DNA of 32,000 bases from Geotalea uraniireducens Rf4 (GCF_000016745.1 NC_009483.1:90001-122000); one strand, 5' to 3'. Counted from the first letter of the stretch, positions 2,234 through 29,948 are shown. Notes: generated from the sequence alone by a model not told the origin. Numbers and translations: made by a program.

Positions 2234-2422
2234 GAATGTTATGGCGATCAGCCTGGTTGCAGAGCTGTCCCTGAATCGATTTTGATTATTTCCCTCGTAG
2301 CGTAATTCTGGGGAGATATCGAACTGCCTTGCGTGATTATCATATTCTTCTCATATTGACTGCGGACCATACAGCGCTAAGCTTTGTAAGTGTACGCAAA
2401 ACAGAATCCCGGAGAAGTCGAC

Positions 2423-4428: not shown

Positions 4429-4435
4429 AAAAGCC

Positions 4436-5881
4436 ATGACGACCCTGGCCGACATGAACATCCGCCCCTCTCCGGACCCGGAGATGGCGGCGATAGCCGA
4501 CTATCTGTGCGATTGCGAGATAACGAGCGAAGAGGCTTATGAAACCGCCCGCCATTGTCTCATGGACAGCCTGGGGTGCGCCATGCTGGCGCTACGCTTT
4601 CCGGAATGTACGAAGCTTCTCGGTCCCCATGTCCCCGGCTCCACGGTGCCGCTCGGGGTAAGAGTCCCCGGCACCGGCTTTGAACTCGATCCGGTCAAGG
4701 CAGCTTTCGACATCGGCGTACTCATCCGCTGGCTCGACTTCAACGATACCTGGCTCGCCGCCGAATGGGGGCACCCCTCCGACAACCTCGGGGGGATTCT
4801 GGCGGTGGCCGATTTCATCTGTCGCCGGAGGGTTGCCGAAGGGAAGGCCCCACTGGTGATGCGCGATGTACTGACCGCCATGATCAAGGCCTATGAGATC
4901 CAGGGGGTGATGGCGCTGGAAAACGGCTTCAACCGGGTGGGACTCGATCATGTGGTGCTGGTCAAACTCGCCTCCGCGGCGGTGGCAACCCGGATGCTGG
5001 GCGGCGGCAGGGAGGAAATCATCAATGCTGTTTCCCAGGTCTGGGTGGATGGTCAGAGTCTCCGCACCTACCGTCACGCTCCCAATACGGGAAGCCGCAA
5101 GTCGTGGGCTGCAGGAGACGCCGCGAGCCGGGGAGTCCGCCTGGCGCTTCTCACCATGGCGGGTGAAAGCGGCTATCCAGGCGCCCTTACCGCCGGAACC
5201 TGGGGGTTTTATGACGTTTCCTTCCGGGGGGAACGGTTCCGCTTCCAGCGACCCTATGGTTCCCATGTCATGGAGAACATTCTGTTCAAAATCGCCTTTC
5301 CCGCCGAGTTTCACGCCCAGACAGCAGTGGAGTGCGCCATCAAGCTTCATGGCCAGGTCAGGGGAAGGCTCGACGACATCGAGCGGGTCGTCATAACCAC
5401 CCAGGAATCGGCCGTCCGGATCATCAGCAAGAGCGGCCCGCTTTACAACCCAGCAGACCGCGACCACTGCATTCAGTATATGGTGGCCATCGGCCTCATC
5501 TTCGGCGAACTGACCGCCGACCATTATGCGGCTGCCGTGGCTGCGGACCCACGTATCGACCGGTTGCGCGAGAGGATGGAAGTAATGGAAGACCCTCGTT
5601 ACAGCAAGGAGTACCTCCACCCTGACAAGCGTTCTATCGCCAATGCCGTAGAGATATTCTTCAAGGATGGCGGCAGCACCGGGAAGGTGGAGGTGGAGTT
5701 TCCCCTCGGCCATCGCCGGCGTCGGGCAGAAGGTCTCCCTCTCTTGTTGCAGAAATGCGAGTCGAATCTTGCCGGTCGTCTCCCCGCCGGACAAGTGGAG
5801 AAGATAATGGCACTCTGCCTCGACCGGCAGCGCCTGGAGAGCATGACTGTCGAGGCGTTCATGGGGCTGTTCGTGGGCTGA
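4436..5881 (+). CDS. prpD: 2-methylcitrate dehydratase (MmgE/PrpD family)
   Basis: ATG 4436 lies 7 nt after the prpC stop. The listed start at 4229 overlaps prpC in another frame and is rejected. The protein looks PrpD-like over its full length (..[12 protein letters not shown].., ..[17 protein letters not shown]..). Confidence 0.88.
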
Positions 5882-6021: not shown

Positions 6022-6603
6022 TTAATAATCGATTCCTGGCTGAGGCTCGATCCTCTTGCGGTAGGCGTGCTTGATCTCTTGAATCTCGCTGACTGTGTCG
6101 GCCAGCTCGATCACCTGCGGGTGGGCATCTCGGCCGGTGAGGATCAGATGCATCATCGGCGGTTTAATGCGGAGGATCTCCAGAACCTGTTCCAGGTCGA
6201 CCAGCTTGAGCTTGATGGCGTTGTTGATTTCGTCGAGGATCATAAGGTCATAGTTATGGGATGATATCTTCTCCTGGACGAGGTCGATGGCATCCTGGGC
6301 GTTGGCCCTGTGCTCGTCCCACGGGTAAGGGTTTCCCAGGATGCCGCAGAACCCCTTGCCGGTGGCGTGCAGCTCGATGGCGCAGTTCATCCGCTTGATG
6401 CTGTCCCACTCCCCGGCGTAGAGGTCACCCTTCATGAACTGGATGATGCAGACCCGCATGCCGTGGCCGCAGGCACGCAACGCCATCCCAAGCGCCGAGG
6501 TGGTCTTCCCCTTGCCGTGACCGGTGATGACCACGATCAGCCCCTGACGCACCTTGGGTTCGAACCGTTCGATCGTGTCGGGTGGTGTACCGCGTTTGAC
6601 CAT
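6022..6603 (-). CDS. cobO: Cob(I)yrinic acid a,c-diamide / cob(I)alamin adenosyltransferase (CobA/CobO/BtuR family)
   Basis: P-loop ITGHGKGKTTSALG followed by IQFMKG... and ILDEI, typical of the CobA/CobO family. ATG is at 6601-6603 on the minus strand with GGAGG 6 nt upstream. The gene is convergent with prpD. Confidence 0.85.
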   Translation of the reverse strand: MVKRGTPPDTIERFEPKVRQGLIVVITGHGKGKTTSALGMALRACGHGMRVCIIQFMKGDLYAGEWDSIKRMNCAIELHATGKGFCGILGNPYPWDEHRANAQDAIDLVQEKISSHNYDLMILDEINNAIKLKLVDLEQVLEILRIKPPMMHLILTGRDAHPQVIELADTVSEIQEIKHAYRKRIEPQPGIDY

Positions 6604-6847
6604 TGTTTCGCCTCCAGCTAATCTCTTACCTTCGCCATCTCAAGACCCGCCCCCAAGTCTTAACTCCCGCTCCGCTCTTTTGCCTCGGCCATCTCCTTCA
6701 GGCTCAGTACTGCTCGGGCATGTTCTCCTGGATAAGTTTTTCCGCTCATAAAGTGTAGCAGGATTACCTGAATTGTATATCGGGAAAAATGCGACAATCA
6801 CCGGAAAACAGACGTTCATTGTACACCTCTGTATACGCATAAAATGT

Positions 6848-6863
6848 TGGCATTAATTGTGCT
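6848..6863 (+). promoter_or_regulatory. Candidate sigma-54 (-24/-12) promoter upstream of the cytochrome operon
   Basis: TGGCATTAATTGTGCT compared with the consensus TGGCACG-N4-TTGCW. GG (6849-6850) and GC (6861-6862) have exact consensus spacing. It sits in the AT-rich 6840-7030 stretch, ~210 nt upstream of ATG 7075. This is pattern match only. Confidence 0.35.
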
Positions 6864-7005
6864 TAACATAACCTGTTAATTGCAATGTTTGAATGTAATC
6901 AGAGTGATAATAGCCAGTTAGCAAAATTATCTCATAATAAATTAAATCTAATTAGCGTGATTAGGCGGAGCTTGCCGTTATATTTCAAGGGTTTTTCCGG
7001 GCCTG

Positions 7006-7011
7006 TATAAT
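7006..7011 (+). promoter_or_regulatory. Candidate sigma-70 -10 hexamer (TATAAT), an alternative promoter for the cytochrome operon
   Basis: Perfect TATAAT at 7006-7011, ~64 nt before ATG 7075. Only a weak -35 (tttcaa, 6983-6988) is present at 17-nt spacing. Confidence 0.25.
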
Positions 7012-7074
7012 GATTTAAGCTTAATTAAATTATTGGTGCGGGGCCGATTCGCAGTCAAAGGGGAGAGAAACTAT

Positions 7075-10000
7075 ATGAGACACCGGATAGTGGGAAATGT
7101 TGCTGCAGAGAGCAGCAAAGCCCGGATAAGTGTCATGGCAGTTGTTGGCATGGCCATTCTGATCATTGGTTTTTTTATAGCGGATAATATTTCCCCCGCA
7201 ACTGCAAATGCCGCCGCTCCCCAATTGATCCATAACAGCGTTAACAGTGCTTCTGGCAAATATGGTACTTGGGGAACCGAGTATACCTGCGGCACCTGCC
7301 ATAACAAACTGGCGAAAAACAATATAAAGTATGTCAACTATACCATTGCCACCCCGACCGGAAAAAGGCGGGTCATCTTTGACCGCTATACCGCTACGTC
7401 CAATGCTGTGACCGGTGTGTTCGGCAATGACTTACGGACGAGCTATGTCGACGGCTCCCGCAATGTCTGCGAGGTTTGCCATCACAGGACTATTTACCAC
7501 AACTACAGTGCCACCAAACTCGTTCAAACCGGAAACTCTCTGACTCACCCGGAACACAAGAGCAACAAGAAGGACTGCAATGCCTGCCATAAGCACAACC
7601 TGGGTTATCGTCCCCCACAGCCCGGGTTGTGTACGGACTGCCACGGCGTCCCGCCGACCAATCCATCACAGCTTATAAGCAACGCCCTCGGTCCCATTCC
7701 CCCCGTCGATGCGGGTGCGCACGGCACCCACCGTTCACAGGAAGGGATGGAGTGCAGCACCTGCCACAACAATTTTGGCCATGGTCTGCTTGGCAACAGC
7801 ATGATCGAATTCGGCTTCAGGATCGACAGGAAGACCTGGACGGCATTTTCCGGCATCTCCACAGTAATGTCCGGTACAATCACTGCCACCGATAATGCGG
7901 CGTTCAACAACAATTTTGCCGTTGCTCCAGGGAACCCTGGTACGGTGCTCAACCGCACCACTGCGTGGGGAACGACATGCAGTGTTTACTGTCATGGCGA
8001 TGGGTGGGCGGCTCCATCGGGTAAGGCTCTCACGGGAGAGATTTCCTGGGCAAACGGACCCCTTGGTTCCTGCAGTGTCGCGGCTTGTCACGGCACCACC
8101 TCTGCGAACCCGCCGAACCCGGGGATCCCCGGTGCACATACGAGGCATGTGGGTGACCTGCAGTTGGCCTGCACCAAGTGCCACCCCGACTACGTCAGCC
8201 CACACATGGTCAATGGGCATGTGACCTGGAATATGTCCGGTCAGGGTGCTGCCGCCACATATAAAGGGTATCAGCATTTTTCAACTGCAACACTTCCCGG
8301 TGTCGCCCCCTACGGGGATTGCGACAACATATACTGCCACAGCAATGTCCAGCCGCAGGGAGGAGTCGGCGGGCCGGATAATTACAAGCTGGTCAGATGG
8401 GGCAGTTCAACAACATTGACATGCGACGGCTGCCACGGCGGCAAGCGGACCGATGCTGCGCCGATAGGTACCGGCGCCCATCCCAAACATATCAGCAATT
8501 ACGCCTATGTCTGTGGTGACTGCCACTTCGGTGCCGGCGCCGACGGCACACTCATGAACCACCTGAACAATAATGTCGAGGTTGTCTTCAACACCTATAG
8601 CGGAAGTTACGGCCAGATGCCGACCAACACACCAGGCAACGGCTACGATAACTGCTCGGCAAACTACTGCCACAGTGATGGTAAAGGGAATAAGAGGGTG
8701 ATTGGTTGGGGAACTGCAGGTCCTCTGGCATGTACAGCCTGCCACAAGGCAGATCAGGCTGGGAATGCCGTAAATACCGGCAAGCATACCGCCCATGTGG
8801 ATAATGCCGGTTTCCTCGGCACAAACTACGGCTGCGTCACCTGTCACGCCAATACCGTCAGTGATAATACTACAATCAGCAATATCTCAAAGCACGTCAA
8901 CAAACTGGCCGACTACTCTGGCGCCAGGGCCGGGCGCTACAATTCTTCAACCGGCACCTGTTCCGTCTCTTACTGCCACAGTGACGGCAAGGGGGGCTCA
9001 CCGGCCATAGCTGTCAGCTGGAAAGACGGCTCGGTAATAAATGATTGCAAAGGATGCCACGGCAACTCATCAGGAGGGACCTTTGTCAGCGCCTCGGGTG
9101 AGCCAAATTACGCGAACACGGGTGCCGATACCACCTTCGCCAACAGCCACGATCGCCACATGGGCGGTGTAGGCATGTCTACCTGTGTCTATTGTCACAA
9201 TGACACGGTGTCGGATACGGGTCTCAAGACCAATACATTCCATCTCAATGGCTCCAAGAACGTTGCAGCCGGTGGAGGCAAGAGCTTTACATATCTGGGT
9301 AACCGGACTTGCTCGAACATCAGCTGCCATGGTGGCCCCTCCAGCATCAAATGGGGGCAGTCTCTCCCTGCAGACTGTACCGGCTGTCATGGCAACAACG
9401 CCCTGAGCTTCGCCCCGATAAGCTCTGGCAAGCACAAGGCCCATATGAACAACGAAACAGTGCTCGGCAAAAACAGCCGTTGTGCAACCTGCCACGCACT
9501 GACTGCCAATTCCGATGACAGAAGCATTGCCGATGTTTCTGTTCACGGCAACGGCTTCAAAAACTACACCGGCTCGCTGGCCGGCAGCAGGAGCAGCTAC
9601 TCGACCGCTACCGGCGTCTGTTCGGCCAGTTACTGTCACACCGACGGTAAAGGAGTACAGAATCTGCCCTTCACCAGCCTCAACGGCTGGAAATCCACTG
9701 CTACCCTCGATTGTACCGGGTGTCACGGCAACAGCAGTCCGGCAGACTTTGCCTCTACCGCTGGCGAACCTAACTATGTCAGCGCCGGTGCCGGGACGTT
9801 ACGGGCCAATGACCATAAAAACCATGTGGACAGTGGAGCAGCCAGCTGTGTCTTCTGTCATGCCGATACGGCTTCCGTTACCGGGAGCATTTTTCTCAAC
9901 TCCAGTACCCATGTCAACAGGCGTATCGATGTCAAGGCAGGCAATGGTAAAACATTTACCTACAGCGCCGGCAAGACCTGCGGCGACATCAGCTGCCATG

Positions 10001-13000
10001 GCGGCAAAGGCTCCTTTACCAAGGTCTGGGGCACTCCGGTTACAGCCGACTGTACCGGATGTCACGGCAACAACGCAGTCAGCTTTGCCCCGATCAGTTC
10101 CGGTCGGCACAAGTCCCACATCAACAATGCCGATCTCGGCAGCAACTACAACTGTACCGCCTGCCACGCCAAGACCATCAACGCCGATGAACGTTCCTTT
10201 TTCAACCGGAACCTCCACGGCAACGGTTATGTCGATTACTCCGGGGTGCAGGCGGGCAAGAGTCCGAGCTACGATCCGGCAACGGGTGCCTGTTCAGCCA
10301 CGTATTGCCATACCGACGGCAAAGGCAAGCAGAACGTTGCATTTGGCCTTACCAACGGCTGGAAGTCGGCAACAGTCTACAGCAACTGTGCAGGTTGCCA
10401 CGGAAACGATACGGCGCCCGCCTTCGGCAGCACCGCCGGCGAGCCGAACTATCCAAACGCCGGTGAATCGCAGCTGCGGGCCAACAGCCACGAGCGGCAC
10501 ATGGGTGGAGTTGGCGGAACAACCTGCGTCTACTGCCACAACGACACGGTGACGGCGGCTGGCTCTCTCAAGTCCGGCGCTTTCCATACCAACAGCACGC
10601 GTGATGTGGCGGCCGGCGGCGGCAAGAGCTTCAGCTATGACCCCGGCACCGGTACCTGCGCCAACATCAGCTGCCACGGTGGCCCGGCGCCCGCCAGGTG
10701 GGGACAGCTCTTCCCGGCCGACTGTACCGGGTGCCACGGCAACAACGCGCTGAGCTTCGCGCCGATGAGCTCGGGCAAACATAAGGCCCATATCAACAAC
10801 AAGATCGTGCTCGGCAAAGACTATGCGTGCGCCAACTGCCACGCCCTGACCGCCAATGCCGATGACCGGAGCATCGCCGACGCCTCGGTTCACGGCAACG
10901 GCTTCAAGAACTTTACATCACCGCTGGCCGGCAACAGGAACAGCTACACCACAGCGACCGGCGTCTGCTCCGCAAGTTACTGCCACACCGACGGCAAGGG
11001 GCAGCAGAACGTAGCGTTCACCAGCGGCAATGGCTGGAAATCTTCAGCGGCCGTACAGCTTGACTGCAAAGGGTGCCACGGCAACAATTCTCCGGCAGAC
11101 TTCGCCAGCGTGAACGGCGAACCGAACTACGCCAGCACCGGGGCCGATACGGCCCGCGCCAACAGTCACAAGAACCATGTGGACAGCGGTGCGGACAGCT
11201 GCGTATTCTGCCACGGCGCGACGGTGACGGCCGCGGGTGCGATCATTCAGGACAGCACTTCTCACGTTCTCAACAAGACCATCGATGTCATTGCCGGCGG
11301 AGGCAAGACCTTTGTTTACGGGGCAGGCAAGAACTGCAGCGACATCAGCTGCCATGGCGGCAAGGGTTCCTTCACCCAGACCTGGGGCGCTCCCATATCC
11401 GCAGACTGCACCGGTTGTCATGGCAACAATGCCGTAAGCTTTGCCCCGATCAGCTCGGGTCGTCACAAGTCCCATATGAACAACCTCGATCTCGGCTCCA
11501 ACTACAGCTGTACTGCATGCCATGCCAAGACAATCAATGCCGATGAGCGCTCCTTCGCCGACCGGAACCTCCATGGCAACGGCTATGTCGATTACTCCGG
11601 GGCACGGGCGGGCAAGAGCTCGAGCTACGACACGGCAACGGGAGCCTGCTCCGCCAGCTATTGCCACAGCGACGGCAAAGGGGCGCAGAATGTTGCGTTT
11701 GGCCTTGGCAATGGCTGGAAATCGACGACCGTCTTCAGCAACTGCGTGGGGTGCCACGGCAACGACACGGCACCTGACTTCTCCAGTGCAGCGGGCGAGC
11801 CTAACTACGCCACCCAGGGTGCCGGCCAGCCACGGGCCAACAGCCACAAGATCCACGTAGGTAGCGCTGGCGCAGCAACCTGCGTATATTGCCACACAAA
11901 CACGGTAAATACCGATGGCACGACCATCAAAGGGAACCACACCAATGGTGTGATCAGCTACGAGAATTCCGCCATTGCGGGCAAGACCTTCACGCCCGGC
12001 GCGGGGAAAACCTGTTCGAACATCAACTGTCACGGCTCCGGTTCACCGGCGGCAACATGGGGTGACACCCTCGGCTGCTCCGGCTGCCACGGCGGCAATG
12101 CGGGCAACGGCCCGATCAGCACCGGCAAGCACACGGCCCACATCAACAACCCGGACATCGGCAATAATCTCGGCTGCGCCGACTGCCACGCCAATGTTGT
12201 CAATACCGATACCTCCTTCAGCAACAGGATGCTGCACGCCAATGGCTTCGCCAACTACTCGGGCGTGATGGGGGGGAGCAGCAAGACTGCCTGCAACGCC
12301 GCATACTGCCACAGCGATGGAAAGGGAAGCACGGGTGTGGCGGTTGACTGGAATACCTCCCCGGCATTTTCCAACTGCATCGGCTGCCACGGTGCCGCAA
12401 CCGGCTCAGGTACCTTCGCCGCCACGGCAGGTGAGCCAAACTATCAGAACCAGGCCGGACTCCGGGCAAACAGTCACCAGAGCCACGCATCTGCCGGCGC
12501 ATCAAGCTGCGACACCTGCCATATCAATACCGTCGTCCCGACAGGCACCGCAATCAAGCCGGGATCGCTCCACCTGAACAGCTCCATTAACGTTGATTTC
12601 AACACAAGCAAGGCCGGATTATCTGCTTGGTATGATTCGCCGAACAAGACCTGTAACAATATAAGCTGTCACGGTTCGGGAACCCCAAAATGGGGTGACG
12701 CGTCTACTACCGGCTGTACGGCTTGTCATCCCAACCTCAGCGCGACCCATGCCAAGCATGTCGGTAATCTGTTCACCTCCGGCTCGGTTACTTTCTACAA
12801 CTTTACCGCCAACCGCTCCGTCGGTACCTATTATAGCTTCGGCTGCGCCAACTGCCATCCAACCGATCCGGCCAAACACCGCAACAGCTACATCGACATC
12901 ACGCTCAACAAAAACAAGGCAGGTGCCGGTTTCCTGTCGACCCTCAACAACCTGGTTAGTGACGATGCCAACGGCTACACCAGGGGAGGAGCAAACAACA

Positions 13001-13743
13001 TCAGCTGCGAAACGGTCTACTGCCATTCGAACGGCCGGACTCTCAGCCTCGCGGCCGGCGATTACAAGCAGACTCCAAACTGGTATGGCGGATCGTTTGG
13101 TAATAACCGTTGCGGCGGTTGCCACGATAACCCGCCCCAGTATGCCGGTCAGTCCCATTACGTGGCAGCGTCCAGCATGGGCAATAACGGTTCGCCTCCC
13201 TATAAGGAGAGCGGCCACATGGTCGGCATCCACTTCCGCAACAACTCCAGGGGGAACAATCTGAACGGTTTCCTCGGTTACTCCTCGAGCGGGAGCATGG
13301 CCCACGGCAATCCTGCCATGGCGACGACCATCAGCTGCTATACCTGCCACAGCGGCATCGTGGACAGTACGCAGATCGATACCTACGCCATGACCGGTAC
13401 CGGCAGCTACTTCCGTTGCGCCAACTGCCATACCTCGAACAGCAGAACACCGCTGCAGCCGGGCCAGATCGTCAACACCGCCCTGCACATCAACGGCACC
13501 AAGAATGTCGCCTTTGCGCCGATTACATTTAAAACCAAGGCCCAGTTGGCCAATGTTGGCAATGCCCTTGGCTGGTCTCGCAACAGCAACTACAAGGCGG
13601 ATGATTCCTATGACAGCTCTGACCTGAGCATCTCCACCTGGGATGTCCAGACCAAGACGTGCCTCACGGCGTGCCATGTGAACCAGCCCGGCATCACCTG
13701 GGGTGCGCAGCTGAAGTGTGTAAGCTGCCACGCCAACCAGTAG
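7075..13743 (+). CDS. Giant multihaem c-type cytochrome 1 (~2222 aa, ~56 CXnCH motifs), Geobacter CxxxxCH...CxxCH-repeat type
   Basis: ATG 7075 with GGAG at 7062-7065; the TTG at 7033 used by the ORF track has no RBS. The N-terminus has a charged stretch, a hydrophobic helix (VMAVVGMAILIIGFFI) and ATANA|AAP, which reads as a Sec signal or anchor with no lipobox Cys. Hand count: 38 CxxCH, 16 Cx4CH and 2 Cx3CH. Stop is TAG at 13741-13743. Confidence 0.93.
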   Translation: MRHRIVGNVAAESSKARISVMAVVGMAILIIGFFIADNISPATANAAAPQLIHNSVNSASGKYGTWGTEYTCGTCHNKLAKNNIKYVNYTIATPTGKRRVIFDRYTATSNAVTGVFGNDLRTSYVDGSRNVCEVCHHRTIYHNYSATKLVQTGNSLTHPEHKSNKKDCNACHKHNLGYRPPQPGLCTDCHGVPPTNPSQLISNALGPIPPVDAGAHGTHRSQEGMECSTCHNNFGHGLLGNSMIEFGFRIDRKTWTAFSGISTVMSGTITATDNAAFNNNFAVAPGNPGTVLNRTTAWGTTCSVYCHGDGWAAPSGKALTGEISWANGPLGSCSVAACHGTTSANPPNPGIPGAHTRHVGDLQLACTKCHPDYVSPHMVNGHVTWNMSGQGAAATYKGYQHFSTATLPGVAPYGDCDNIYCHSNVQPQGGVGGPDNYKLVRWGSSTTLTCDGCHGGKRTDAAPIGTGAHPKHISNYAYVCGDCHFGAGADGTLMNHLNNNVEVVFNTYSGSYGQMPTNTPGNGYDNCSANYCHSDGKGNKRVIGWGTAGPLACTACHKADQAGNAVNTGKHTAHVDNAGFLGTNYGCVTCHANTVSDNTTISNISKHVNKLADYSGARAGRYNSSTGTCSVSYCHSDGKGGSPAIAVSWKDGSVINDCKGCHGNSSGGTFVSASGEPNYANTGADTTFANSHDRHMGGVGMSTCVYCHNDTVSDTGLKTNTFHLNGSKNVAAGGGKSFTYLGNRTCSNISCHGGPSSIKWGQSLPADCTGCHGNNALSFAPISSGKHKAHMNNETVLGKNSRCATCHALTANSDDRSIADVSVHGNGFKNYTGSLAGSRSSYSTATGVCSASYCHTDGKGVQNLPFTSLNGWKSTATLDCTGCHGNSSPADFASTAGEPNYVSAGAGTLRANDHKNHVDSGAASCVFCHADTASVTGSIFLNSSTHVNRRIDVKAGNGKTFTYSAGKTCGDISCHGGKGSFTKVWGTPVTADCTGCHGNNAVSFAPISSGRHKSHINNADLGSNYNCTACHAKTINADERSFFNRNLHGNGYVDYSGVQAGKSPSYDPATGACSATYCHTDGKGKQNVAFGLTNGWKSATVYSNCAGCHGNDTAPAFGSTAGEPNYPNAGESQLRANSHERHMGGVGGTTCVYCHNDTVTAAGSLKSGAFHTNSTRDVAAGGGKSFSYDPGTGTCANISCHGGPAPARWGQLFPADCTGCHGNNALSFAPMSSGKHKAHINNKIVLGKDYACANCHALTANADDRSIADASVHGNGFKNFTSPLAGNRNSYTTATGVCSASYCHTDGKGQQNVAFTSGNGWKSSAAVQLDCKGCHGNNSPADFASVNGEPNYASTGADTARANSHKNHVDSGADSCVFCHGATVTAAGAIIQDSTSHVLNKTIDVIAGGGKTFVYGAGKNCSDISCHGGKGSFTQTWGAPISADCTGCHGNNAVSFAPISSGRHKSHMNNLDLGSNYSCTACHAKTINADERSFADRNLHGNGYVDYSGARAGKSSSYDTATGACSASYCHSDGKGAQNVAFGLGNGWKSTTVFSNCVGCHGNDTAPDFSSAAGEPNYATQGAGQPRANSHKIHVGSAGAATCVYCHTNTVNTDGTTIKGNHTNGVISYENSAIAGKTFTPGAGKTCSNINCHGSGSPAATWGDTLGCSGCHGGNAGNGPISTGKHTAHINNPDIGNNLGCADCHANVVNTDTSFSNRMLHANGFANYSGVMGGSSKTACNAAYCHSDGKGSTGVAVDWNTSPAFSNCIGCHGAATGSGTFAATAGEPNYQNQAGLRANSHQSHASAGASSCDTCHINTVVPTGTAIKPGSLHLNSSINVDFNTSKAGLSAWYDSPNKTCNNISCHGSGTPKWGDASTTGCTACHPNLSATHAKHVGNLFTSGSVTFYNFTANRSVGTYYSFGCANCHPTDPAKHRNSYIDITLNKNKAGAGFLSTLNNLVSDDANGYTRGGANNISCETVYCHSNGRTLSLAAGDYKQTPNWYGGSFGNNRCGGCHDNPPQYAGQSHYVAASSMGNNGSPPYKESGHMVGIHFRNNSRGNNLNGFLGYSSSGSMAHGNPAMATTISCYTCHSGIVDSTQIDTYAMTGTGSYFRCANCHTSNSRTPLQPGQIVNTALHINGTKNVAFAPITFKTKAQLANVGNALGWSRNSNYKADDSYDSSDLSISTWDVQTKTCLTACHVNQPGITWGAQLKCVSCHANQ
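8731..12714 (+). repeat. Six tandem coding modules (~215-228 aa, six haem motifs each) inside cytochrome 1; modules 1-4 form an A-B-A-B higher-order duplication
   Basis: The first Cys codon of each module falls at 8731, 9376, 10051, 10723, 11407 and 12076, giving periods of 645, 675, 672, 684 and 669 nt. Modules at 9376 and 10723 share ..CHGNNALSFAP(I/M)SSGKHKAH... Modules at 10051 and 11407 share ..CHGNNAVSFAPISSGRHKSH... So 9376-10722 is duplicated as 10723-12075. Confidence 0.9.
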
Positions 13744-13751
13744 GGGGGAAC

Positions 13752-16700
13752 ATGAGTACGTTGATATCCGGGATTAAAGGTAAAGTGACCATGATGATGA
13801 TAAGACAGAATCCCAAGATGGGTGTGCAGAGAATAAAGCGGGTGGGATGGTTGTCCGCCACTATCCTCGGTCTTTTCTTTGCTTCCGTTATCAGTGTCCG
13901 GGCAGCTGACCTTCTTCATAACAGTGCCGATACCGCATCGAAAAAATGGCAGGCCCAGGGAGGCTGGGGTGTAACAGGGGGGAAGTATGGCAAGTTCGAT
14001 TGCGCTACCTGCCATGAACCCGATGCGGCCAACCTCAGGAACATCCGTAAAACCATAACCACCCAGAACGGAGAAAGCTGGCCAAGCGGCTCGCCTTCGG
14101 TAGATGTAACCTTTCTCAACTCCACAAGCATGGGCTATGACAAGGGGGGGCACGCAGCTTCCAGCCGCATATGTGAGGTCTGCCACAGTGCCAACCAGTT
14201 CCATAACTTCAATACCGCCAATAACACGGGCGGCCTTTCACATCCGACGCCCAATGCGGTCTGTACTTCCTGCCACAAGCATAACACCGGCTTCAAGGCG
14301 GCCTGTGGCGGGTGCCACGGCAACCCTCCCACTGCTGCCGTACTTGGCGGTGATTACGGCCTGATCGGCACTCCCCGCGCCTCCAACGCCATGGCTGCCG
14401 GACAGGTGGGTGCCCATGCCACCCACACCCAGACCCGCAACATGGTTTGCGACACCTGTCACTATATCAACAACGGCACCATCAAGATGCCCAATCTGAG
14501 CAACACCATCGATATCGGCTTTTATGGTTTTGGCGGCAAGGTAACCAGCGGCACCTATGTTCCCTATTCTTCCACCAGTCGTGGCTACCGCATTGCCTCG
14601 GGCACAGCCAATACGACCATGGCAACGGTGGTAACCAGCTATGCCAATGCAAACAAATGTTCCGGGGTCTACTGCCATGGCGGCGGGGTGAAAGTAGGAG
14701 CTACCCAGGTAAAAGCACCGCTTACCGGGGGTAACAATATTGCCCCGCAATGGACCGCGGTTTCCCAGAACCAGTGCGGCAGCTGCCATGGAGTAGATGC
14801 CGCCAGCCCGCCGACAATGGGGAGCCATGTCAAGCACGTGGTGCCGGTCTGGTCGGCCCAGAGCGGCAACTGCGACCTCTGTCATCCGGCCATAGACATG
14901 TCCCACGTCCAGGGAAGCTTGCGCTGGGAGATGAAGGTAACTGACGCCAGAGTCGGCGCAAATGCAACATACAAAGGTCTGGACAAGGGTGCTACCGGAG
15001 ACTTGGCCCCCAGCGACACCTACGGCCAATGCACAAACGTTGCCTGCCACACCGACGGCAAGGGGGGAGCACCGAGGCTGGATGCCACCTGGGGGAGCAG
15101 CACCTTCAATGCCGATTGTTCAGGTTGCCATGGCGGCAATGCCGGAAGTAGCGCACCCATTGCCTCCGATATGCACGGACAGCACATCAACCAGATCGGA
15201 GTAAACGGCGTCAACTTCGGCTGCGTCGAGTGTCATGCCCAGACAGTAACAGCTGACAGAACAATCGGTGTTCTTGGCAATCACCTTAATCAGCTTGTCA
15301 ACTATTCCGGGGCCAGGGCGGGCAAAAACAAGGCTGCCTGCAACAGTGCCTATTGCCACAGCGATGGCAAGGGGAATGCCGGCATGGCAGTCAGCTGGTC
15401 TGGTGGAACCCCCATCGATAACTGTATCGGCTGTCACGGCTCAGCCAGCCCTGCCGATTTTGCAAGTGTCTATGGCGAGCCCAATTATGCGAGTACCGGT
15501 GGTGGTGCAGCACGGGGCAACAGCCATAAAAAGCATGTGGCCGCCGGTTCCGCCAGCTGTATCTACTGCCATGGCGGAACCGTAACAGGAACAGGCGCTT
15601 TGACAGGTGCCAATCATATCGACATGACTATCCAGGTGGCCCCCGGTGGTGGCGAGAGTTTCGGCTATCCGGGAGGCAAGACCTGCTCGACCATTTCCTG
15701 CCATGGTTCAGGCTCTCCCAATGCCGTCTGGGGCGCCACCCTGCCGGCCGACTGTACCGGCTGTCACGGCGGCAATGCAGCAGTGGCACCCAATGACATC
15801 AAGACCGGCCAGCATACCCGGCACATTAACAATGTATCGGTGAACGGAGTGAATTACGGTTGTGCCGAATGTCATGCCCAGACGGTAAATGCCGATCTGA
15901 CGATCAGCAATTCCACCCTCCATGTCAATAAGTTTACCAACTATTCCGGAGCCCGCGCCGGCAAAAACACGGCTGCCTGCAATGCCGCTTACTGCCATTC
16001 AGACGGAAAAGGGAGCGCAGGCATCGCGGTAAACTGGGCAACAGGACCGGCCATAGACAACTGCACAGGTTGCCATGGTGCAGCCAGTCCGGCGGATTTT
16101 GCCAGTGTTTACGGCGAGCCGAACTACGCCGGCACCGGTAGTGGAGCCGAGCGCGCCAACAGCCATAAGAAGCATGTGGGAACTTCAGGCTCTTCCACCT
16201 GTATCTATTGTCATGCAGGGACAGTGGCTGTGGACGGCAAACTTGCCGGCGCCAATCATATGGATAAATCTATCCAGGTCTCACCGGGCGGAGGGAAGGA
16301 TTTCGGTTATCCCGGCGGCAAGACCTGTTCAAACATTACCTGTCACGGTGCCGGTTCACCAGATGCGGTCTGGGGTGCGACCATGCCTGTCGACTGCACC
16401 GGTTGCCACGGCGGCAACAGCGCCAGTTTCAAACCGATCTCCTCGAACATGCATAAACCACACGTGAGCCAGTCCGGCTTGAATGGGGAGAATTACGGTT
16501 GTGTCGAGTGCCATGCCCAGACGGTCAATGGAGACCGGTTGGTGTCGAATCAGGGCAACCACGGCAACCAGTTCCCCAACTATTCCGGTGCCAGGGCAGG
16601 CAAGATTGTTGCGTCCTGCAACGCCTCCTACTGCCATGGCGACGGCAAGGGGAGCGCCGGTATGGCTGTAAGCTGGGCGGGCGGCACCCCCATAAACAAT

Positions 16701-18068
16701 TGCATCGGCTGTCACGGTGCTGCCAGTCCGGCCGACTTCACAAGCATTGCCGGCGAGCCGAACTATGCAAACGCCGGTATCGGCCTCTACAAGGCCAACA
16801 GCCACAGGAGCCATACTGCGGCCGGCGCCTCCACCTGTGAAACATGCCACATCAATACGGTGACCACTGACGGTACGGCCATACTCGGGACCGGCCTCCA
16901 CATCGACAGGTCCATCAACGTCAACTTCAATACAACCAAGGCCGGTGCCACGGCCAACTACGATCCTGTTACCCGGACCTGCAACAACATTTCCTGCCAC
17001 GGCGGCGGGAACCCCAGATGGGGCGATATCAGCGCCGGATGCAGTGCCTGCCACCCGAATCCGGCAGGGCTCCACACCGTACATATCCGCGATATGCTCT
17101 CGGCCGGCATGGTTGCATTTTATAACTTCACCGGCAATCGTTCCGTTGGTACATACTATCGCTTTGGTTGCGCGAACTGCCACCCGACCGATACCGCGAA
17201 ACACCGTAACGGCCAAGTCGAAGTGACTTTCAACAAGAACAAGGCTGGCGCAGGCTATCTCACAACCCTCAACAATCTGGTCAGCGACGATACCGGTGGC
17301 TACACCAAGGGGGGAGCCAACAATTTCACCTGCGAGACAGTCTACTGCCACTCGAACGGCCGAACCCTTTCACTCGTTGCCGGAGACTACCGGCAGACCC
17401 CCAACTGGTACGGCGGCAGCTTTGGCGGCAACCGTTGCGGCGGCTGCCACGACAATCCGCCCCAGTACGCCGGTCAGTCCCATTACGTTGCCGAGTCCAG
17501 TCTTGGTGACAACGGGACCCCCCCATATGCGGAGAGCGGTCACATGGTCGGCATCCACTTCATGAATACCTATGTGGGTAACAATATGAACGGTTATCTC
17601 GGCTATTCTTCCAGCGGGAGCATGGCCCATGGCAACCCGGCCCTGGCGACGACCATCAGCTGCTACACCTGCCATAGCGGTATCGTGAGCAGCTCGCAGA
17701 TCGACACCTATGCAATGAGCGGCACCAGCAGCAATTTCCGCTGCGAGGCCTGCCACACCTCGAGCAGCAGAACGCGACTGCAGCCGGGCGAGATTGTCAA
17801 CGCGTCCCTCCACATAAATGGTGCCAAGGATGTGGCGTTTGCTCCCATCAGTATAAAAACCAAGGCCCAATTAGCCAATGTTGCCAATGCTCTCGGCTGG
17901 TCACGTAGCGGTAACTACAAGGCAGATACTTCTTACGACAGTGCCGATCTGAGCGTTGCCACCTGGAATGCCCAGACCAAAACATGCCTCACCGCGTGCC
18001 ACGTAAATCAACCGGACATTACATGGGGTGCGCAGCTTAAGTGTGTGAGTTGTCACGCGAACCAGTAA
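13752..18068 (+). CDS. Giant multihaem c-type cytochrome 2 (~1438 aa, ~35 CXnCH motifs)
   Basis: ATG 13752 lies 8 nt after the cytochrome 1 stop and is preceded by GGGGGG (13744-13749). The listed start at 13659 would overlap cytochrome 1. Signal peptide ..WLSATILGLFFASVISVRA|ADLLHNS. Hand count: 25 CxxCH, 9 Cx4CH and 1 Cx3CH. Stop is TAA at 18066-18068. Confidence 0.92.
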   Translation: MSTLISGIKGKVTMMMIRQNPKMGVQRIKRVGWLSATILGLFFASVISVRAADLLHNSADTASKKWQAQGGWGVTGGKYGKFDCATCHEPDAANLRNIRKTITTQNGESWPSGSPSVDVTFLNSTSMGYDKGGHAASSRICEVCHSANQFHNFNTANNTGGLSHPTPNAVCTSCHKHNTGFKAACGGCHGNPPTAAVLGGDYGLIGTPRASNAMAAGQVGAHATHTQTRNMVCDTCHYINNGTIKMPNLSNTIDIGFYGFGGKVTSGTYVPYSSTSRGYRIASGTANTTMATVVTSYANANKCSGVYCHGGGVKVGATQVKAPLTGGNNIAPQWTAVSQNQCGSCHGVDAASPPTMGSHVKHVVPVWSAQSGNCDLCHPAIDMSHVQGSLRWEMKVTDARVGANATYKGLDKGATGDLAPSDTYGQCTNVACHTDGKGGAPRLDATWGSSTFNADCSGCHGGNAGSSAPIASDMHGQHINQIGVNGVNFGCVECHAQTVTADRTIGVLGNHLNQLVNYSGARAGKNKAACNSAYCHSDGKGNAGMAVSWSGGTPIDNCIGCHGSASPADFASVYGEPNYASTGGGAARGNSHKKHVAAGSASCIYCHGGTVTGTGALTGANHIDMTIQVAPGGGESFGYPGGKTCSTISCHGSGSPNAVWGATLPADCTGCHGGNAAVAPNDIKTGQHTRHINNVSVNGVNYGCAECHAQTVNADLTISNSTLHVNKFTNYSGARAGKNTAACNAAYCHSDGKGSAGIAVNWATGPAIDNCTGCHGAASPADFASVYGEPNYAGTGSGAERANSHKKHVGTSGSSTCIYCHAGTVAVDGKLAGANHMDKSIQVSPGGGKDFGYPGGKTCSNITCHGAGSPDAVWGATMPVDCTGCHGGNSASFKPISSNMHKPHVSQSGLNGENYGCVECHAQTVNGDRLVSNQGNHGNQFPNYSGARAGKIVASCNASYCHGDGKGSAGMAVSWAGGTPINNCIGCHGAASPADFTSIAGEPNYANAGIGLYKANSHRSHTAAGASTCETCHINTVTTDGTAILGTGLHIDRSINVNFNTTKAGATANYDPVTRTCNNISCHGGGNPRWGDISAGCSACHPNPAGLHTVHIRDMLSAGMVAFYNFTGNRSVGTYYRFGCANCHPTDTAKHRNGQVEVTFNKNKAGAGYLTTLNNLVSDDTGGYTKGGANNFTCETVYCHSNGRTLSLVAGDYRQTPNWYGGSFGGNRCGGCHDNPPQYAGQSHYVAESSLGDNGTPPYAESGHMVGIHFMNTYVGNNMNGYLGYSSSGSMAHGNPALATTISCYTCHSGIVSSSQIDTYAMSGTSSNFRCEACHTSSSRTRLQPGEIVNASLHINGAKDVAFAPISIKTKAQLANVANALGWSRSGNYKADTSYDSADLSVATWNAQTKTCLTACHVNQPDITWGAQLKCVSCHANQ
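15117..17039 (+). repeat. Three tandem six-motif haem modules (~212-215 aa) inside cytochrome 2
   Basis: Module-initial Cys codons are at 15117, 15753 and 16395 (periods 636 and 642 nt). Each module reads ..DC(S/T)GCHGGN...H..H...GC(V/A)ECHAQTV...NYSGARAGK...C N(S/A)(A/S)YCH(S/G)DGKG...NC(I/T)GCHG(S/A)ASPADF(A/T)S..GEPNYA....NSH(K/R)(K/S)H...C(I/E)(Y/T)CH...H(I/M)D..I.V...GG...C S(T/N)I(S/T)CHG. Confidence 0.9.
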
Positions 18069-18081
18069 GAGGGGAAGGCAC

Positions 18082-21000
18082 ATGATCAAGAACGGCATAA
18101 AAAGATTTTTCATAAAGGGTGAAGATGCGATGAAGATACGGACTGTTATGACTATTTTTCCGGGTAGAGTGTTAAAAGGGTTGACAGCACTGGCGATTGC
18201 CTGGGCAATAAGCTTGACCCCTTTACCATCAGGTGCCGTTGATCTCATGCACAACAGTGATCCCAGTGGGGGTACCGGCTCGACAAAATGGGCAGCCCAG
18301 GGAGGATGGGGGGTGACCGGCGGCAAGTACGGCAAGTTTGAATGCTCTACCTGTCATGAACCGAATAAAAAGCCGAACATCAAGAATGTCCGTCGTGTAA
18401 TTACCACCCGGAACGGCGAGAACTGGCCCAACGGCTCATCTTCTGCCGCCATATCGTTCAGCAACGTGACCAGCATGGGCGAGGATACCGGCGGCCACTC
18501 AACCTCCAGCCGCATCTGCGAAGCCTGTCACAGCCAAAACAAATTCCATAATGCAAATACTGCAAACAATATAGCAAACGGTGGAAACCTCAGCCACCCG
18601 ACTCCCAAGGCCATATGCACCTCCTGTCACAAGCATAACACCGGCTTCAAGGCCGCCTGCGGCGGTTGCCACGGCAATCCACCCACGGAAGCGGTCATTG
18701 GGGGAGACACTGGCCTCGTTGGCACCCCCCGGCCCTCAAATGCGCTCACATCCGGTCATGCCGGTGCCCATGTCACTCACACCGAGACACGGGGCATGGT
18801 CTGCGACACCTGCCATTATATAAACAACGGCGGCATCAAGATGCCGAATCTCAGCAACAGCATCGATATCGGTTTTTTCGGTTTCGGCGGTAAGGTGACA
18901 AGCGGCACCTATGTTCCCTATTCCTCGGCCAATCGCGGCTACCGGGTCGCATCGGGCACTGCCAATACCACCATCGCAACAGTTGTAACCGATTACACCA
19001 CCGCAAATATCTGCTCCAATGTGTACTGTCATGGCGGAGGCGTCAAAGTCGGTGCGACCCAGGTGAAAGTGCCGCTGACCGGCGGAAGTAATCAGAATCC
19101 CCGTTGGGACGCAGCCAGCCAGAACCAGTGCGGCAGTTGCCACGGCACCACACCGGCCACGCCCCCTGCCATGGGGAGCCATGTCAAGCATTCCGGCTCG
19201 ACCGGCTACAGCTTCTCCTGTGATCTCTGCCATCCGGCCATTGACGTAACCCATGTCCAAGGGAGTGTCCGTTGGAGCATGAAGACTTCGGATTCCCGGG
19301 TGGGAGCTGCTGCTGCCTATAAAGCTGCCGGATCTCTTGAAGCATTGCAGCAGGGAGCAACCAATGACCTTGCCCCAAGTGCGGCCTACGGTCAGTGCTA
19401 TAATCTTTACTGCCACAGTAATGGAAAGGGCGGAACGCCACGCCAGGATCCAACGTGGGGTGACGGCAATTATTCCACCGGCTGCACAAACTGCCACGGC
19501 AACAACGCCGGTGCTGTCTCCACCATGGCCAGTAACGGCCACAAAGCCCACGTTGCAAATACAAGTGCCCGCTTTGGCGGGTTTGATTTCCGCTGTCAGG
19601 AATGTCACAACGCTACGGTAAATGCCACCGATACTGCAGTGATATCCACCTCTCTTCATGTCAATGCAGCTGCTGATGTGGCTTGGGGCCCGGACGCATC
19701 GTACGTGCCTAACGGCGGTACGAGCACCCTGCCGTACAATTCGGCCCAAACCTGCACGGTTTACTGCCATTCCAATGGTCAGGGTAAATACAAGGCTCCC
19801 CCGCAGACCTGGAACACTATTGGCGATAACCAGGAGGGGACCATTGAGTGCAATTACTGCCACAACGGCCTGGCTGGCGTGCAAAATCAGATGAGTTCGG
19901 GACGGCATCTGAATCACATCAATGGCGGCCCGCTGCCGCACAGGCCCATTGCCTGTAACTGGTGCCACTCGAACACCGTAGCCTCTAACGGCCAATCGGT
20001 ATACAACGGTACCGATGTCAAGCACATCAACCGCACGATCGACGTCTCGTTCATAAAAATGGCTAATTTCTCCGGAAGTTATAGCACCTCTAACCACGTC
20101 TGTTCAAACACGTACTGTCATACCAACAATGCAACCACCTCTACCCGGGACTGGGATACCACCACGGTCAATACCTGCGGCAACTGCCATGAGGCGAACA
20201 ATACGACCACCGCGTCAGCCACACTGTCACCCGCACACCGCAAACATTACAACAGGTCGACACGTCCTTCCAATACGACTGAGCAGGGGTGGACCAACGT
20301 CAATCTGTCCGCCAGCACCAATATCTTTATGTGCGGTATCTGCCATCCCGGCACTCCGACGACCAGCCACCTTAACGGGCCGCCGGCAGGCGTTACCAAC
20401 GGGTCTGTGGCCGAAGTGGCGATCCGCCTCCCGTTTACGCCCCCTGTCGGTGCCACCAGACCCGAGATAGTAACCCGCGGCACCGGTGTCAATTACGATG
20501 GTCGAGGCTATGGTTATTCTACCGGGACCACCTGCGATACTTACTGCCATTCCGACGGCCGGGGCAACCCGGGAAAACGCAACAGCACCAGCACGCCGAG
20601 GCTGGAATGGACTACCGCCACCGGAGTCGTCTGCGGCAACTGTCATAACCAGTATGGCGATGCTAACCCCACCTGGTCAGGTTCCCATACCAAGCATCTC
20701 TCCGGTTCACGAAGCACCAATGCCACTTGCAACGCCTGCCATGCGGCCACGGCGGCGGACAATACCACTCTGATAGCCGGCAGGCGCGACAAGCATCCCA
20801 ACGGTTTCCGCAATGTGACCGGCAACAGCATTGCCGGTGCCATCCGTTGGGACAGCAGCGTCCAGCAGTGTACCAACGTCTACTGCCATTTCAACAAGCC
20901 CGTTACCTGGGGCGGCTCTCTCCCAGCGGGTTGCATTGGCTGTCACGGCTACAACGCCGGTTCCGGAGACCCGATCGCCACCAAGGGGCACACCGCCCAT

Positions 21001-24000
21001 GTCAACAACACCAGCACCAGATTCGGCAACTTCAACTTCAAGTGCAACGAATGCCACGCTTCAACAGTAAATGCATTTGACAATGTTACTGCTGTCTCGC
21101 TTCATGCCAACAAAGTTAATAATGTGAGCTGGGGTGCCAAGTCAACGGGAGGACTCGCCTACGCAACAAACGGCTGCACGCAGATATACTGCCACTCCAA
21201 CGGCACCGGGGTATACAAGGCGCCGCCGACCACCTGGAACAACATTGCTTCGGGACAGCAGGGAACCATTGAGTGCAATTACTGCCACAACGGCCTGGCC
21301 GGTATCCAGAGACAGATGAGCACCGGGCGGCACATCAACCATATCAATGCCGGACCGCTGCCCCACAGGCCCGTTACCTGCAACTGGTGCCACTCCGGCA
21401 CCGTAGCCTCCAACGGCCAATCGGTATACAACGGTACCGATGTGAAACACATCAACCGCACGATTGACGTATCCTTCATCAAGATGGCCAACTTTTCGGG
21501 GAGCTACTCCACCTCGAACCATGTCTGCGCCAATACCTATTGCCATACGAACAATGCGACGACCTCCACCCGTGACTGGGATACCGCGACGGTCAATACC
21601 TGCGGCAACTGCCACGAGGCCAACAATACGACGACAGCGTCAGCCACACTGTCCCCGGCACACCGCAAGCATTACAACAGGTCAACACGTCCTTCCAATA
21701 CGACAGAACAAGGATGGACCAACGTCAACCTGTCGGCCAGTACCAATATCTTTATGTGCGGCACATGCCACCCGGGCAGCCCAACTGAAAGCCATATTAA
21801 CGGTCCCCCCGCAGGTGTCACAAACGGTTCAGTTGCCGAAGTGATTATGCGACCGCCGTTCTCGACGCCCCAGGGTGCCGGACGCCCTGAAATCGTGTTC
21901 CGCGGCACCGGTGTGAACTATGATGGCCGGGGCTATGGCTACTCCACCGGTACATCCTGCGATACCTATTGCCACTCCGACGGACGTGGCGGCCTTGGTA
22001 AACGGAATTACGCAAATACGGCGTTTACTCCGGTCACCAGTGTACTGCGTTGGACAGGCAGGGCTGCCGCCTGTGGAGACTGCCATAACAAGGCCAGTGA
22101 CAATCCGGCAACCACAACCTGGTCACAGCCCCACAACAAGCATGCCAACACCTATGGCAACGGCGGCACCATAGGCAGCAACAACACCACAACCAATAAC
22201 ACATTGGTAACCTGCGCCGCCTGCCATGCATCCACCGCCTCCAGCAATACGGCTCTTGTCTCCGGTAGCCGAGCCAAGCACCCGAACGGCTTCCGCAACA
22301 TATCGGCCAGCAGTACCGTAGGCTCTGCCGCATTCCGCTGGGATCCGGCAAACAACCAGTGCAAGAACGGTTACTGCCACAGCAGAGCCTATTCGTTTAC
22401 CGACTATTCCACCCCCTCGATCAAGTGGGATACGGTACAGGCGGACATTCACTGCGGCAGCTGCCACAACAGCTATCCGGTTGGTCCTGATTATGCCAAC
22501 GGCTATAAGGGAAAGGCCAACAGCCACCCCAAACATGCGGTTTTCTGGGGGTTCACCTGTGACTGGTGCCACAATGGAACCACCACAACCGGCAATACCA
22601 TCACCAACGTCAGAAACCATGTCAACAAGAACTACAACGTTGTGGCCAACGGCACCAAGACCTTTATCGGCAAGGCCAACACCTTCACCGCTACTGCGAC
22701 TACCAATCCGCCGAGCGTGAAGACCACCTGCACCAACGTCAACTGTCACGGCGGCAATACCTCAACCGTCTTCACCTGGGGGGGGACCAACAAGTGCAGC
22801 GACTGCCATCTGACCACCGCCGCCGACACGATCAACTATGCCTTCAAGAACAGCACCATGGCGACTATCAATTCTGTCGAATGGACCTACTCCGGTCATG
22901 GCAAGGCCAGCGGCACATACGACGTGACCGGGTCCAATGCGGCCAATTTCCCCGGAGCGGCCGGCACCGGCGACCCCTGTCTCTATTGTCACGACTACGA
23001 CGTGATCCACGGCGATAGCGGGAACCCGCTCCGTTTGAGAAACTTTGCCGATCCTGCCTGGGGCAAGAACGGCGTCTGTCTCATCTGCCACGCCACGGGT
23101 CAGGGTAACTATGACCCGGACGGCACAGGACCCATGACGGCCAAAGGTGCGAGCAAGAAGATCGACAAGTACCATTACGGCTTGAAGCACTCGACAACTC
23201 TTAACAGTGGCCAGTTCTGCTGGGATTGTCATGACTCCCACGGCGATCGGAACAGCACCAATGCCGGGCCGATTGCCATGGTACATCTGAAGCCTGCCGT
23301 CACCTCTGATGGCGTCACCGGCATACCAACAAGCTTTACGGCGAATAACGTTTCCTTTGTTGCCAGGGCGGCAGCCTCTGACTGGGCCAAAACAGTTGCG
23401 CCTTTCAACGGCATCTGCAACGTCTGCCATACTTATAAGTCTGCCGACCCGAACAAGATGGTGCACTTCACCGCGACCAATTCTGATGCCATCCACAATA
23501 CGACCACGGTCTGCACCCAGTGCCATCTGCATAGCTCTACGACTACCTACGATGGAACCGCATATAAAGGTGATCCTAAGGTCTGCGACGGCTGTCACGA
23601 CGGCAACAATAACGGCGGTCTTTCTCCGGGCATTGCCGGCACTCCTTCCACCAATGCCGGCCATGCCATCCATTACAACCAGGCGACCGTCTTCAACCAT
23701 TACACCGGCAACAACAAGCATACGGCCACAGCCTATGGTTTTGCCTGCAAGAATTGCCATGTGAAAACTCTCGTGAATCACCAGAACGGTGGCACAGCAG
23801 AGATGCTCGGGTCCATAGGCTATGTCCAGGGGGGGACGTCGACCCCGGACGGCCGCGATTACAACTACTATAACGCCGATACCTGCGGCACGAACAGCTG
23901 TCACCAGGATGGCAGGCTCGGAACGCCGCAAACAACCTCATTCGCGTGGTCGGGAACCAGGACATCAAACTGCGGCAAGTGCCATGTCGATATGTCTTCC

Positions 24001-28169: not shown

Positions 28170-28188
28170 TTCTGCAAAAAATGCAGAA
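28170..28188 (+). terminator. Weak AT-rich hairpin between the HMA and DUF2318 genes (possible intra-operon attenuator)
   Basis: TTCTGCA-aaaaa-TGCAGAA forms a perfect 7-bp stem, followed by AATATTTT. The stem is short and AT-rich, so termination efficiency is doubtful. Confidence 0.25.
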
Positions 28189-28219
28189 AATATTTTCCAA
28201 CTTACTAAAGGAGACTGAA

Positions 28220-29915: not shown

Positions 29916-29948
29916 TTTCATGCGACAGTTGAAGTTTGAGAGGACATT

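Follow-up and report, generated by a model that had tools for sequence, protein, structure and literature searches.

The window analyzed here, by which we mean the whole 32,000-nucleotide (nt) stretch of the Geotalea uraniireducens Rf4 genome (GCF_000016745.1, NC_009483.1:90001-122000), contains a tandem cluster of three genes for predicted giant multihaem c-type cytochromes, and our subject is the arrangement of the CXnCH haem-binding motifs in these proteins. Calling of open reading frames (ORFs) over the window returned three long plus-strand ORFs lying head to tail at 7033-13743, 13659-18068 and 18082-25629, which we refer to as cytochromes 1 to 3. Cytochrome 1 (7075..13743, plus strand) comprises 2222 amino acids (aa) and 56 CXnCH motifs, made up of 38 CxxCH, 16 Cx4CH and 2 Cx3CH; cytochrome 2 (13752..18068, plus strand) has approximately 1438 aa when counted from the ATG at 13752, with 35 motifs (25 CxxCH, 9 Cx4CH and 1 Cx3CH); and cytochrome 3 (18082..25629, plus strand) has 2515 aa and 59 motifs (43 CxxCH, 13 Cx4CH and 3 Cx3CH). 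The real start of cytochrome 1 is likely the ATG at 7075 and not position 7033; this ATG is preceded by a GGGGAG ribosome-binding site, and the N-terminus of the protein has a hydrophobic signal-like segment. The longest ORF of cytochrome 2 opens at 13659, 85 nt before the cytochrome 1 stop, and the stretch 13659-13751 brings three non-motif cysteines (Cys) into it. Position 13659 is almost certainly not the true start, which is more likely to be either the ATG at 13752 or an MMM a few codons further on, just past the stop of cytochrome 1. All three N-termini consist of a basic and then a hydrophobic segment followed by a common (L/M)HNS, as judged by eye with no predictor; on this judgment a putative export signal, which is the prerequisite for periplasmic haem attachment, would be present in all three proteins.

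The three cytochromes together hold 150 CXnCH motifs (56 + 35 + 59), of which 106 are CxxCH, 38 are Cx4CH and 6 are Cx3CH. The number of sites that depart from CxxCH is thus 44 of 150, exactly the figure of 44 in about 150 that the original prediction had given. There are no Cys outside the motifs in the mature proteins (6,175 residues), the sole exception being the three that lie before the likely start of cytochrome 2, and in each whole protein the non-motif histidines (His) are at least as numerous as the haems. Each of the 38 Cx4CH motifs has a CxxCH 18-30 residues downstream of it, and the strings of motif spacings are periodic, running 2-2-4 over the greater part of all three proteins.

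The region named in the original prediction runs from position 8731, the first Cys codon of a CTACH in cytochrome 1, to position 17039, the last base before a CSACH in cytochrome 2. Cytochrome 1 contains six consecutive six-haem modules on the plus strand at 8731..12714 (starts at 8731, 9376, 10051, 10723, 11407 and 12076), and cytochrome 2 contains three more, also on the plus strand, at 15117..17039 (starts at 15117, 15753 and 16395). We excised the nine modules at the boundaries that the prediction implied and aligned them with MAFFT. They measure 212-228 aa and are 44-75% identical to the first module. The motif order proposed for every module is the same in all nine of them, namely CxxCH, CxxCH, Cx4CH, CxxCH, CxxCH, Cx4CH, and the residue counts are likewise identical throughout, at exactly 12 each of Cys and His per module. 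The further claim, that six of the 12 His occupy conserved non-motif positions, was borne out by the alignment, in which the 12 His and 12 Cys columns are all invariant and no His falls outside its 12 columns; these 24 make up nearly half of the 50 invariant columns. Methionine (Met) occurs 1-3 times per module. The consensus strings that had been proposed for the motifs were right overall, with single-residue exceptions: the module at 8731 opens with CTACH rather than CxGCH; the first Cx4CH, typified by CSASYCH at 9619..9639 (plus strand), appears as CSVSYCH and as CNSAYCH in one module each and is followed by G after the His in one; and the second, typified by CGDISCH at 9979..9999 (plus strand), reads CSTISCH in one module. 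The pattern as a whole is far beyond chance.

At the DNA level, cytochrome 1 shows a super-period of approximately 1350 nt, corresponding to two modules or 12 haems, which pairs modules 1 and 3 and modules 2 and 4, while the modules of cytochrome 2 form a DNA repeat with a period of 639 nt and 71-72% identity. Repeats at 77-79% DNA identity were recorded in cytochrome 1 between 9298-9597 and 10645-10944 and between 9914-10213 and 11270-11569. Cytochrome 3 has an internal duplication of its own, 19831-20130 versus 21256-21555, at an offset of 1425 nt and with a reported 82% identity over 300 nt.

The real repeat is smaller than the six-haem module: it is a three-haem unit of approximately 100-115 aa, half a module, which we defined as running from the end of one CxGCH through the end of the next. 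Its grammar is HxxH, CxxCH, a lone His, Cx4CH (rarely Cx3CH), a tryptophan (Trp) and CxGCH. Over the three proteins there are 44 units centred on a Cx4CH or Cx3CH, 100-157 aa in length, and 35 of these 44 hold exactly 6 His and 6 Cys, with a few holding 7-8 His. An alignment of 26 units from the three proteins, which are 23-79% identical to the first and have a mean column identity of 32%, retains only 13 invariant columns: 6 Cys, 6 His and 1 Trp. Besides the three His of its motifs, each three-haem unit thereby shows exactly three invariant His, and Met is conserved at no position; the family alignment described below gave the same result. Two types of unit alternate in cytochromes 1 and 2, type A with YCH(S/T)DGKG and type B with GEPNY and ISCHG, and it is this alternation that gives rise to the six-haem module. 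The plus-strand segment 9391..9726 is an example of type A, with HxxH (GKHKAH), CATCH, a lone His (VHGNG), CSASYCH-TDGKG, Trp and CTGCH; the Pfam Cytochrome_C7 profile covers the equivalent of this unit in the next module. The adjoining plus-strand segment 9727..10065 exemplifies type B, with GEPNY, HxxH (NDHKNH), CVFCH, a lone His (STHV), CGDISCH-G, Trp and CTGCH.

Over their last 1189 aa, cytochromes 1 and 2 are collinear, with 55% identity. They share the C-terminal region that follows the modules, which in cytochrome 1 occupies 12715..13743 on the plus strand, includes a Cx3CH (CLTACH) and places its last CxxCH three residues from the stop. The counterpart in cytochrome 2 lies at 17040-18068, the similarity being recorded as a DNA repeat (D6) at 71% identity, and a more distant one in cytochrome 3 lies at 24592-25629; in all three, the region has a Cx3CH or Cx4CH and a final CxxCH 2-3 residues before the stop codon. 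Cytochrome 3 follows the same three-haem grammar as cytochromes 1 and 2 with other unit types, and in this protein, as in a few other places, Cx3CH occupies the exact slot of Cx4CH. Its middle (22795-23990) is a stretch of eight CxxCH in a row with no Cx4CH and several extra His, which departs from the three-haem grammar. Just past this run, at aa 1962-2114, falls a weak NCBIfam match to the DmsE decahaem family (E=3e-4, far under the cut-off).

Because the nine modules are paralogues with DNA identity of up to approximately 80%, we carried out a test of conservation outside the window. A word-indexed homologue search gave 8 matches only, and an exhaustive profile search was needed: the nine-module profile was searched against 1.84 billion representative proteins and matched 1567 of them at E<=1e-3 and 343 at E<=1e-30. 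From the best 150 profile matches and the 8 word-index matches we collected 236 near-full-length module copies in 126 proteins, with a median pairwise identity of 36%. The six non-motif His columns were 93-99.6% His in these copies, so that the proposal of conserved extra ligands withstood the alignment that could have overturned it, and most of the apparent losses at the weakest column were spacing variants, HxxxH or HxxxxH. Elsewhere His reached at most 15% in any column, and Met was close to zero at the ligand columns. All 24 Cys and His columns were at least 93% conserved, whereas only 9 of the 194 other columns reached 90%; 12 Cys were present in 226 of the 236 copies, and 12 His in 147 and 13 His in 71. 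These data indicate that the constraint on the extra His is as tight as that on the haem motifs. The spacing of the four CxxCH sites was constant throughout. The first long site was Cx4 in 215 of 233 copies (92%), with Cx3 in 16 as the main alternative, and had a tyrosine before the second Cys in 216 of 236, while the second long site was Cx4 in 225 of 235 copies (96%). As judged from these alignments, the unusual Cx4 spacing is itself under selection, and the interpretation of Cx4CH as a probable haem site is well supported by conservation.

The three proteins belong to a curated Geobacter family, and the feature is already known. They match the NCBIfam model TIGR01904, 'CxxxxCH/CxxCH domain c-type cytochrome', with 604, 318 and 382 bits for cytochromes 1 to 3 (cut-off 27), in 10-16 stretches per protein (15 in cytochrome 1), and the Pfam family PF09698, 'Geobacter CxxxxCH...CXXCH motif' (GSu_C4xC__C2xCH), with 152, 104 and 128 bits versus a cut-off of 21.7. 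Their database relatives bear the name 'CxxxxCH...CXXCH cytochrome family protein', and we presume that GSU2884, GSU0702 and other large cytochromes of G. sulfurreducens also belong to TIGR01904/PF09698. Compared to the members of these families, nothing essential differs in the window proteins, except that they are longer (35-59 haems). A genome scan identified 69 related loci, all in Geobacteraceae or Desulfuromonadales and including Geobacter sp. OR-1, Geotalea toluenoxydans, Geomonas species and Citrifermentans bremense; the best genomic match among the scanned genomes had 75% identity over the module. The tandem order of cytochromes 1, 2 and 3 is kept in Geotalea toluenoxydans and in two uncultured Geobacter metagenome bins (loci L004, L001 and L008), with 66-86% identity over the N-terminal parts. 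The nearest representative proteins are collinear orthologues at 68% identity for cytochrome 1 (P0009, which also has 56 motifs) and then at 62% and 63%; orthologous 56- and 35-haem proteins occur in other Geobacteraceae. Several other members of the family carry more than 100 CXnCH motifs (very large examples include P0149 and P0058), and one of them, P0019, has approximately 151 motifs (118 CxxCH, 31 Cx4CH and 2 Cx3CH) in a single predicted polypeptide of 5264 aa. A 2024 survey of cytochromes in the Desulfuromonadia, which counted CXXXXCH as a haem site, reported peaks in abundance for cytochromes with 27, 35 and 56 haem motifs, and its AlphaFold models of large uncharacterized cytochromes of the present kind (a 27-haem cluster, and GSU2884/OmcH/OmcG) are long single-chain haem wires (PMC11492766). 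Cx3CH and Cx4CH have been counted as haem motifs in other surveys too (PMC10734462).

The reading that we favor, with a probability of roughly 85%, is that the locus consists of three genes in tandem whose products are giant multihaem c-type cytochromes, exported and built as chains of three-haem units, in which every CXnCH bears a haem, essentially all haems are bis-histidine (bis-His) ligated, the protein acts as a haem wire or store, and maturation proceeds by System II. Each CXnCH, including Cx4CH, would most likely bind one haem c by two thioether bonds, with the motif His as the proximal ligand and the three non-motif His of each unit as the distal ligands; if the three non-motif His serve in this way, essentially all haems would be low-spin bis-His. 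By analogy with the c7-type cytochromes, the first His of HxxH may pair with the CxxCH haem and the second with the Cx4CH haem, which would leave the lone His for the CxGCH haem. We modeled these assignments on the established ligand pairs of PpcA (1OS6). With approximately 40 residues per haem, the 35-59 haems of each protein could make up a wire or an electron store within one polypeptide chain, with a probable role in multi-step extracellular or periplasmic electron transfer or storage. Haem attachment would be expected via the System II proteins ResB/ResC, which exist in several copies in Geobacter species and would be encoded elsewhere in the genome; from the literature and the related loci, System II maturation is what we expect for the family as a whole.

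Several observations weigh against this reading. Nothing in the PDB matched below E=0.1 when the query was a double module or the profile of either the nine modules or the 26 units, and such matches as these searches returned were short, CxxCH-centred ones to reaction-centre cytochromes. We found no solved structure or biochemical study of the family in the literature, and its haem sites are read from sequence. AlphaFold2 modeled the six-haem module with a predicted local distance difference test score (pLDDT) of 50 (17-row alignment) and the three-haem unit with a pLDDT of 58 and a predicted template-modelling score (pTM) of 0.46 (37 window-derived rows), and Foldseek searches of the PDB with these low-pLDDT models gave zero matches. 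A profile comparison of the unit with PpcA by hhalign had a probability of 10%, which is not significant, and was out of register; the c7 relationship has two supports, the Pfam match and the motif order. In the last C-terminal unit of each protein only 4 His are available to 3 haems, and 7-8 His occur in a few units, so that a few haems may be ligated differently or from a neighbouring unit, and not every haem need be bis-His. Finally, we infer the cellular location and function of the three cytochromes.

The shortage of His in the C-terminal units is also what lends some weight to a different view of ligation, in which some of the Cx4CH haems are not bis-His but His/Met or five-coordinate, and serve as special redox or catalytic haems. 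Some multihaem wires do contain a His/Met haem, as in the c7-type domains of GSU1996, and the 1-3 Met in each module could in principle supply such ligands. Against this, the modules have exactly as many invariant non-motif His as haems, and no Met column is conserved or invariant, Met being virtually absent from the ligand columns, which makes special ligation of this kind very unlikely. An even more sceptical view would have the Cx4CH sites carry no haem, their Cys forming structural disulfides or binding metal and the motif arising by chance; the putative occupancy in the family rests on sequence, and older annotations gave haem numbers as ranges. The two Cys and the His of Cx4CH, though, appear as invariant as those of the CxxCH sites, at a fixed spacing, and each site is matched by one extra invariant His. 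Since there are zero spare Cys in the 6,175 residues and haem on CXXXCH and CXXXXCH peptides has been detected by mass spectrometry in MmcA (PMC11024163), a precedent for haem on Cx4CH, we find this view hardly credible. The favored reading, six bis-His haems per module with Cx4CH as genuine haem sites, which is also what the original prediction had argued, fits all the sequence tests that were run.

How the haem might be installed at Cx4CH is a related question. According to one proposal, these sites need a dedicated lyase, with one System II ResB/ResC paralogue specific for Cx4CH or for giant substrates. There is precedent for such specificity in CcsA1, which serves the CX15CH of Wolinella MccA. 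Neither annotation of the flanking genes nor a scan for the WWD motif brought to light a ResB, ResC/CcsA or Ccm-type gene anywhere in the 32 kb window, and in the WWD-motif scan of the window and the 69 related loci ResC-like genes were found within 10 kb in three loci only (L047, L014 and L015). These ResB/ResC pairs beside family cytochromes lie at L047 1411-3565, L014 2367-5185 and L015 4622-5536; Pfam confirmed pairs of ResB and Cytochrom_C_asm on L014 and L047, and in L047 the two genes stand immediately upstream of two PF09698 cytochromes and in the same orientation. Three of 69 loci is little above chance for a genome with about four pairs, and we rejected the idea that linkage of a lyase gene to the cluster is general. 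The Cx4CH of Desulfovibrio cytochrome c3 is, moreover, handled by general maturation systems. The same holds for MmcA, whose Cx4CH maturation is the work of the ordinary Ccm system of archaea (PMC11024163). In favor of the proposal, G. sulfurreducens and G. metallireducens each have four ResB/ResC pairs, several of which adjoin very large cytochromes whose haem counts were given as ranges (24-27, 26-35), and the authors of the G. metallireducens genome suggested that the cytochromes next to a given pair are the ones it serves (PMC2700814). On balance, we regard a requirement for a dedicated lyase as unlikely. That a substrate-specific accessory ResB/ResC pair installs the Cx4CH haem in every unit is likewise quite improbable; if true, the lyases dedicated to CXXCK and to CX15CH would be joined by a third class with a motif of its own, and the retention of four or more ResB/ResC pairs in these bacteria would be accounted for. 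The question of extra lyases in Geobacter was already raised in 2009 (PMC2700814).

The neighbouring genes in the window are unrelated to haem attachment. Upstream of the cluster lie prpB/prpC/prpD-like genes (2390-5881) and, on the minus strand, a gene for a corrinoid adenosyltransferase (6022-6603), and the other flanking genes encode an HD-domain protein, an FtrD-like protein, a MacB-type ABC transporter and a histidine kinase. An ORF of 713 aa (92-2233), located 5′ of the prpB/prpC/prpD-like genes, has Glucodextran_B, CHB_HEX_C and bacterial Ig-like domains, and its product is probably a surface or secreted protein. Past the cytochrome cluster, the region 28181-30635 contains the gene for the FtrD-like membrane iron-sulfur protein and, after it, those for the MacB-type permease, an ABC ATPase and the histidine kinase. 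An AT-rich intergenic region of approximately 470 nt (6604-7074) lies 5′ of cytochrome 1 and is likely its promoter or regulatory region; an Rfam scan of the whole window, which would cover a cyclic-dinucleotide riboswitch for example, found no family at the gathering score.

The three cytochromes are among the densest and longest single-chain haem arrays known. Counting the conserved His provides a cheap way to fix haem numbers for which older annotations gave ranges, such as 24-27 and 26-35, and it also points to the selection on Cx4 spacing noted above. Since the basic facts, that Cx4CH is a haem site, that its position is fixed and that the family is typical of Geobacter, are already in the databases and the literature, our findings confirm the existing annotation and open no new question.

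Among known systems, the MtrC/OmcA decahaem cytochromes of the outer surface were considered and not adopted. On the PF22113 domain II/IV model the scores of whole proteins add up to 59-84 bits, but those of single modules are 23-26 bits versus a cut-off of 30, and PDB matches to MtrC were at E>3. The Wolinella MccA and NrfA systems resemble the present one in combining a non-standard motif (CX15CH with CcsA1, CXXCK with NrfI) with an organism that has several System II lyase paralogues, but theirs are dedicated lyases, whereas the window cytochromes are without a linked lyase gene. The GSU1996-type dodecahaem 'nanowire' polymers of c7 domains share with them the tandem trihaem domains and the one long haem chain per polypeptide; GSU1996 has CxxCH only, with one His/Met haem per domain, and was not retrieved by the PDB sequence searches made here. 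Desulfovibrio tetrahaem cytochrome c3 (class III), to which the original prediction had compared the modules, has genuine Cx4CH haem sites with bis-His ligation, and the window proteins give weak matches to the Pfam families Cytochrom_CIII and Cytochrom_c3_2, which per module are below or near threshold. A c3 domain of approximately 110 aa, though, has four haems and two Cx4CH, whereas the present unit has three haems and one Cx4CH, and we rejected membership of this class on account of the disagreement in both numbers. The comparison with c3 thus holds as an analogy only: the motifs follow the order found in trihaem cytochrome c7, and what had been called a module is two three-haem units. The c7 protein PpcA (PDB 1OS6, to which our query sequence was identical) has the same order of HxxH, CxxCH, H, CXnCH and CxxCH and three bis-His haems per unit. 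The Pfam model Cytochrome_C7 (PF14522) gave 189 bits for cytochrome 1 and 25.7-35.2 for single modules versus a gathering score of 24.8, with profile positions 4-66 of 67 aligned across one whole unit, although no c7 structure in the PDB was matched better than E=2.2 by the 26-unit profile. A c7 cytochrome is free-standing, with approximately 70 aa and three CxxCH, while the present units have Cx4CH or Cx3CH in the middle and occur fused in tens. The better label, which should replace the comparison with c3, is a c7-like three-haem unit with a Cx4CH middle site.

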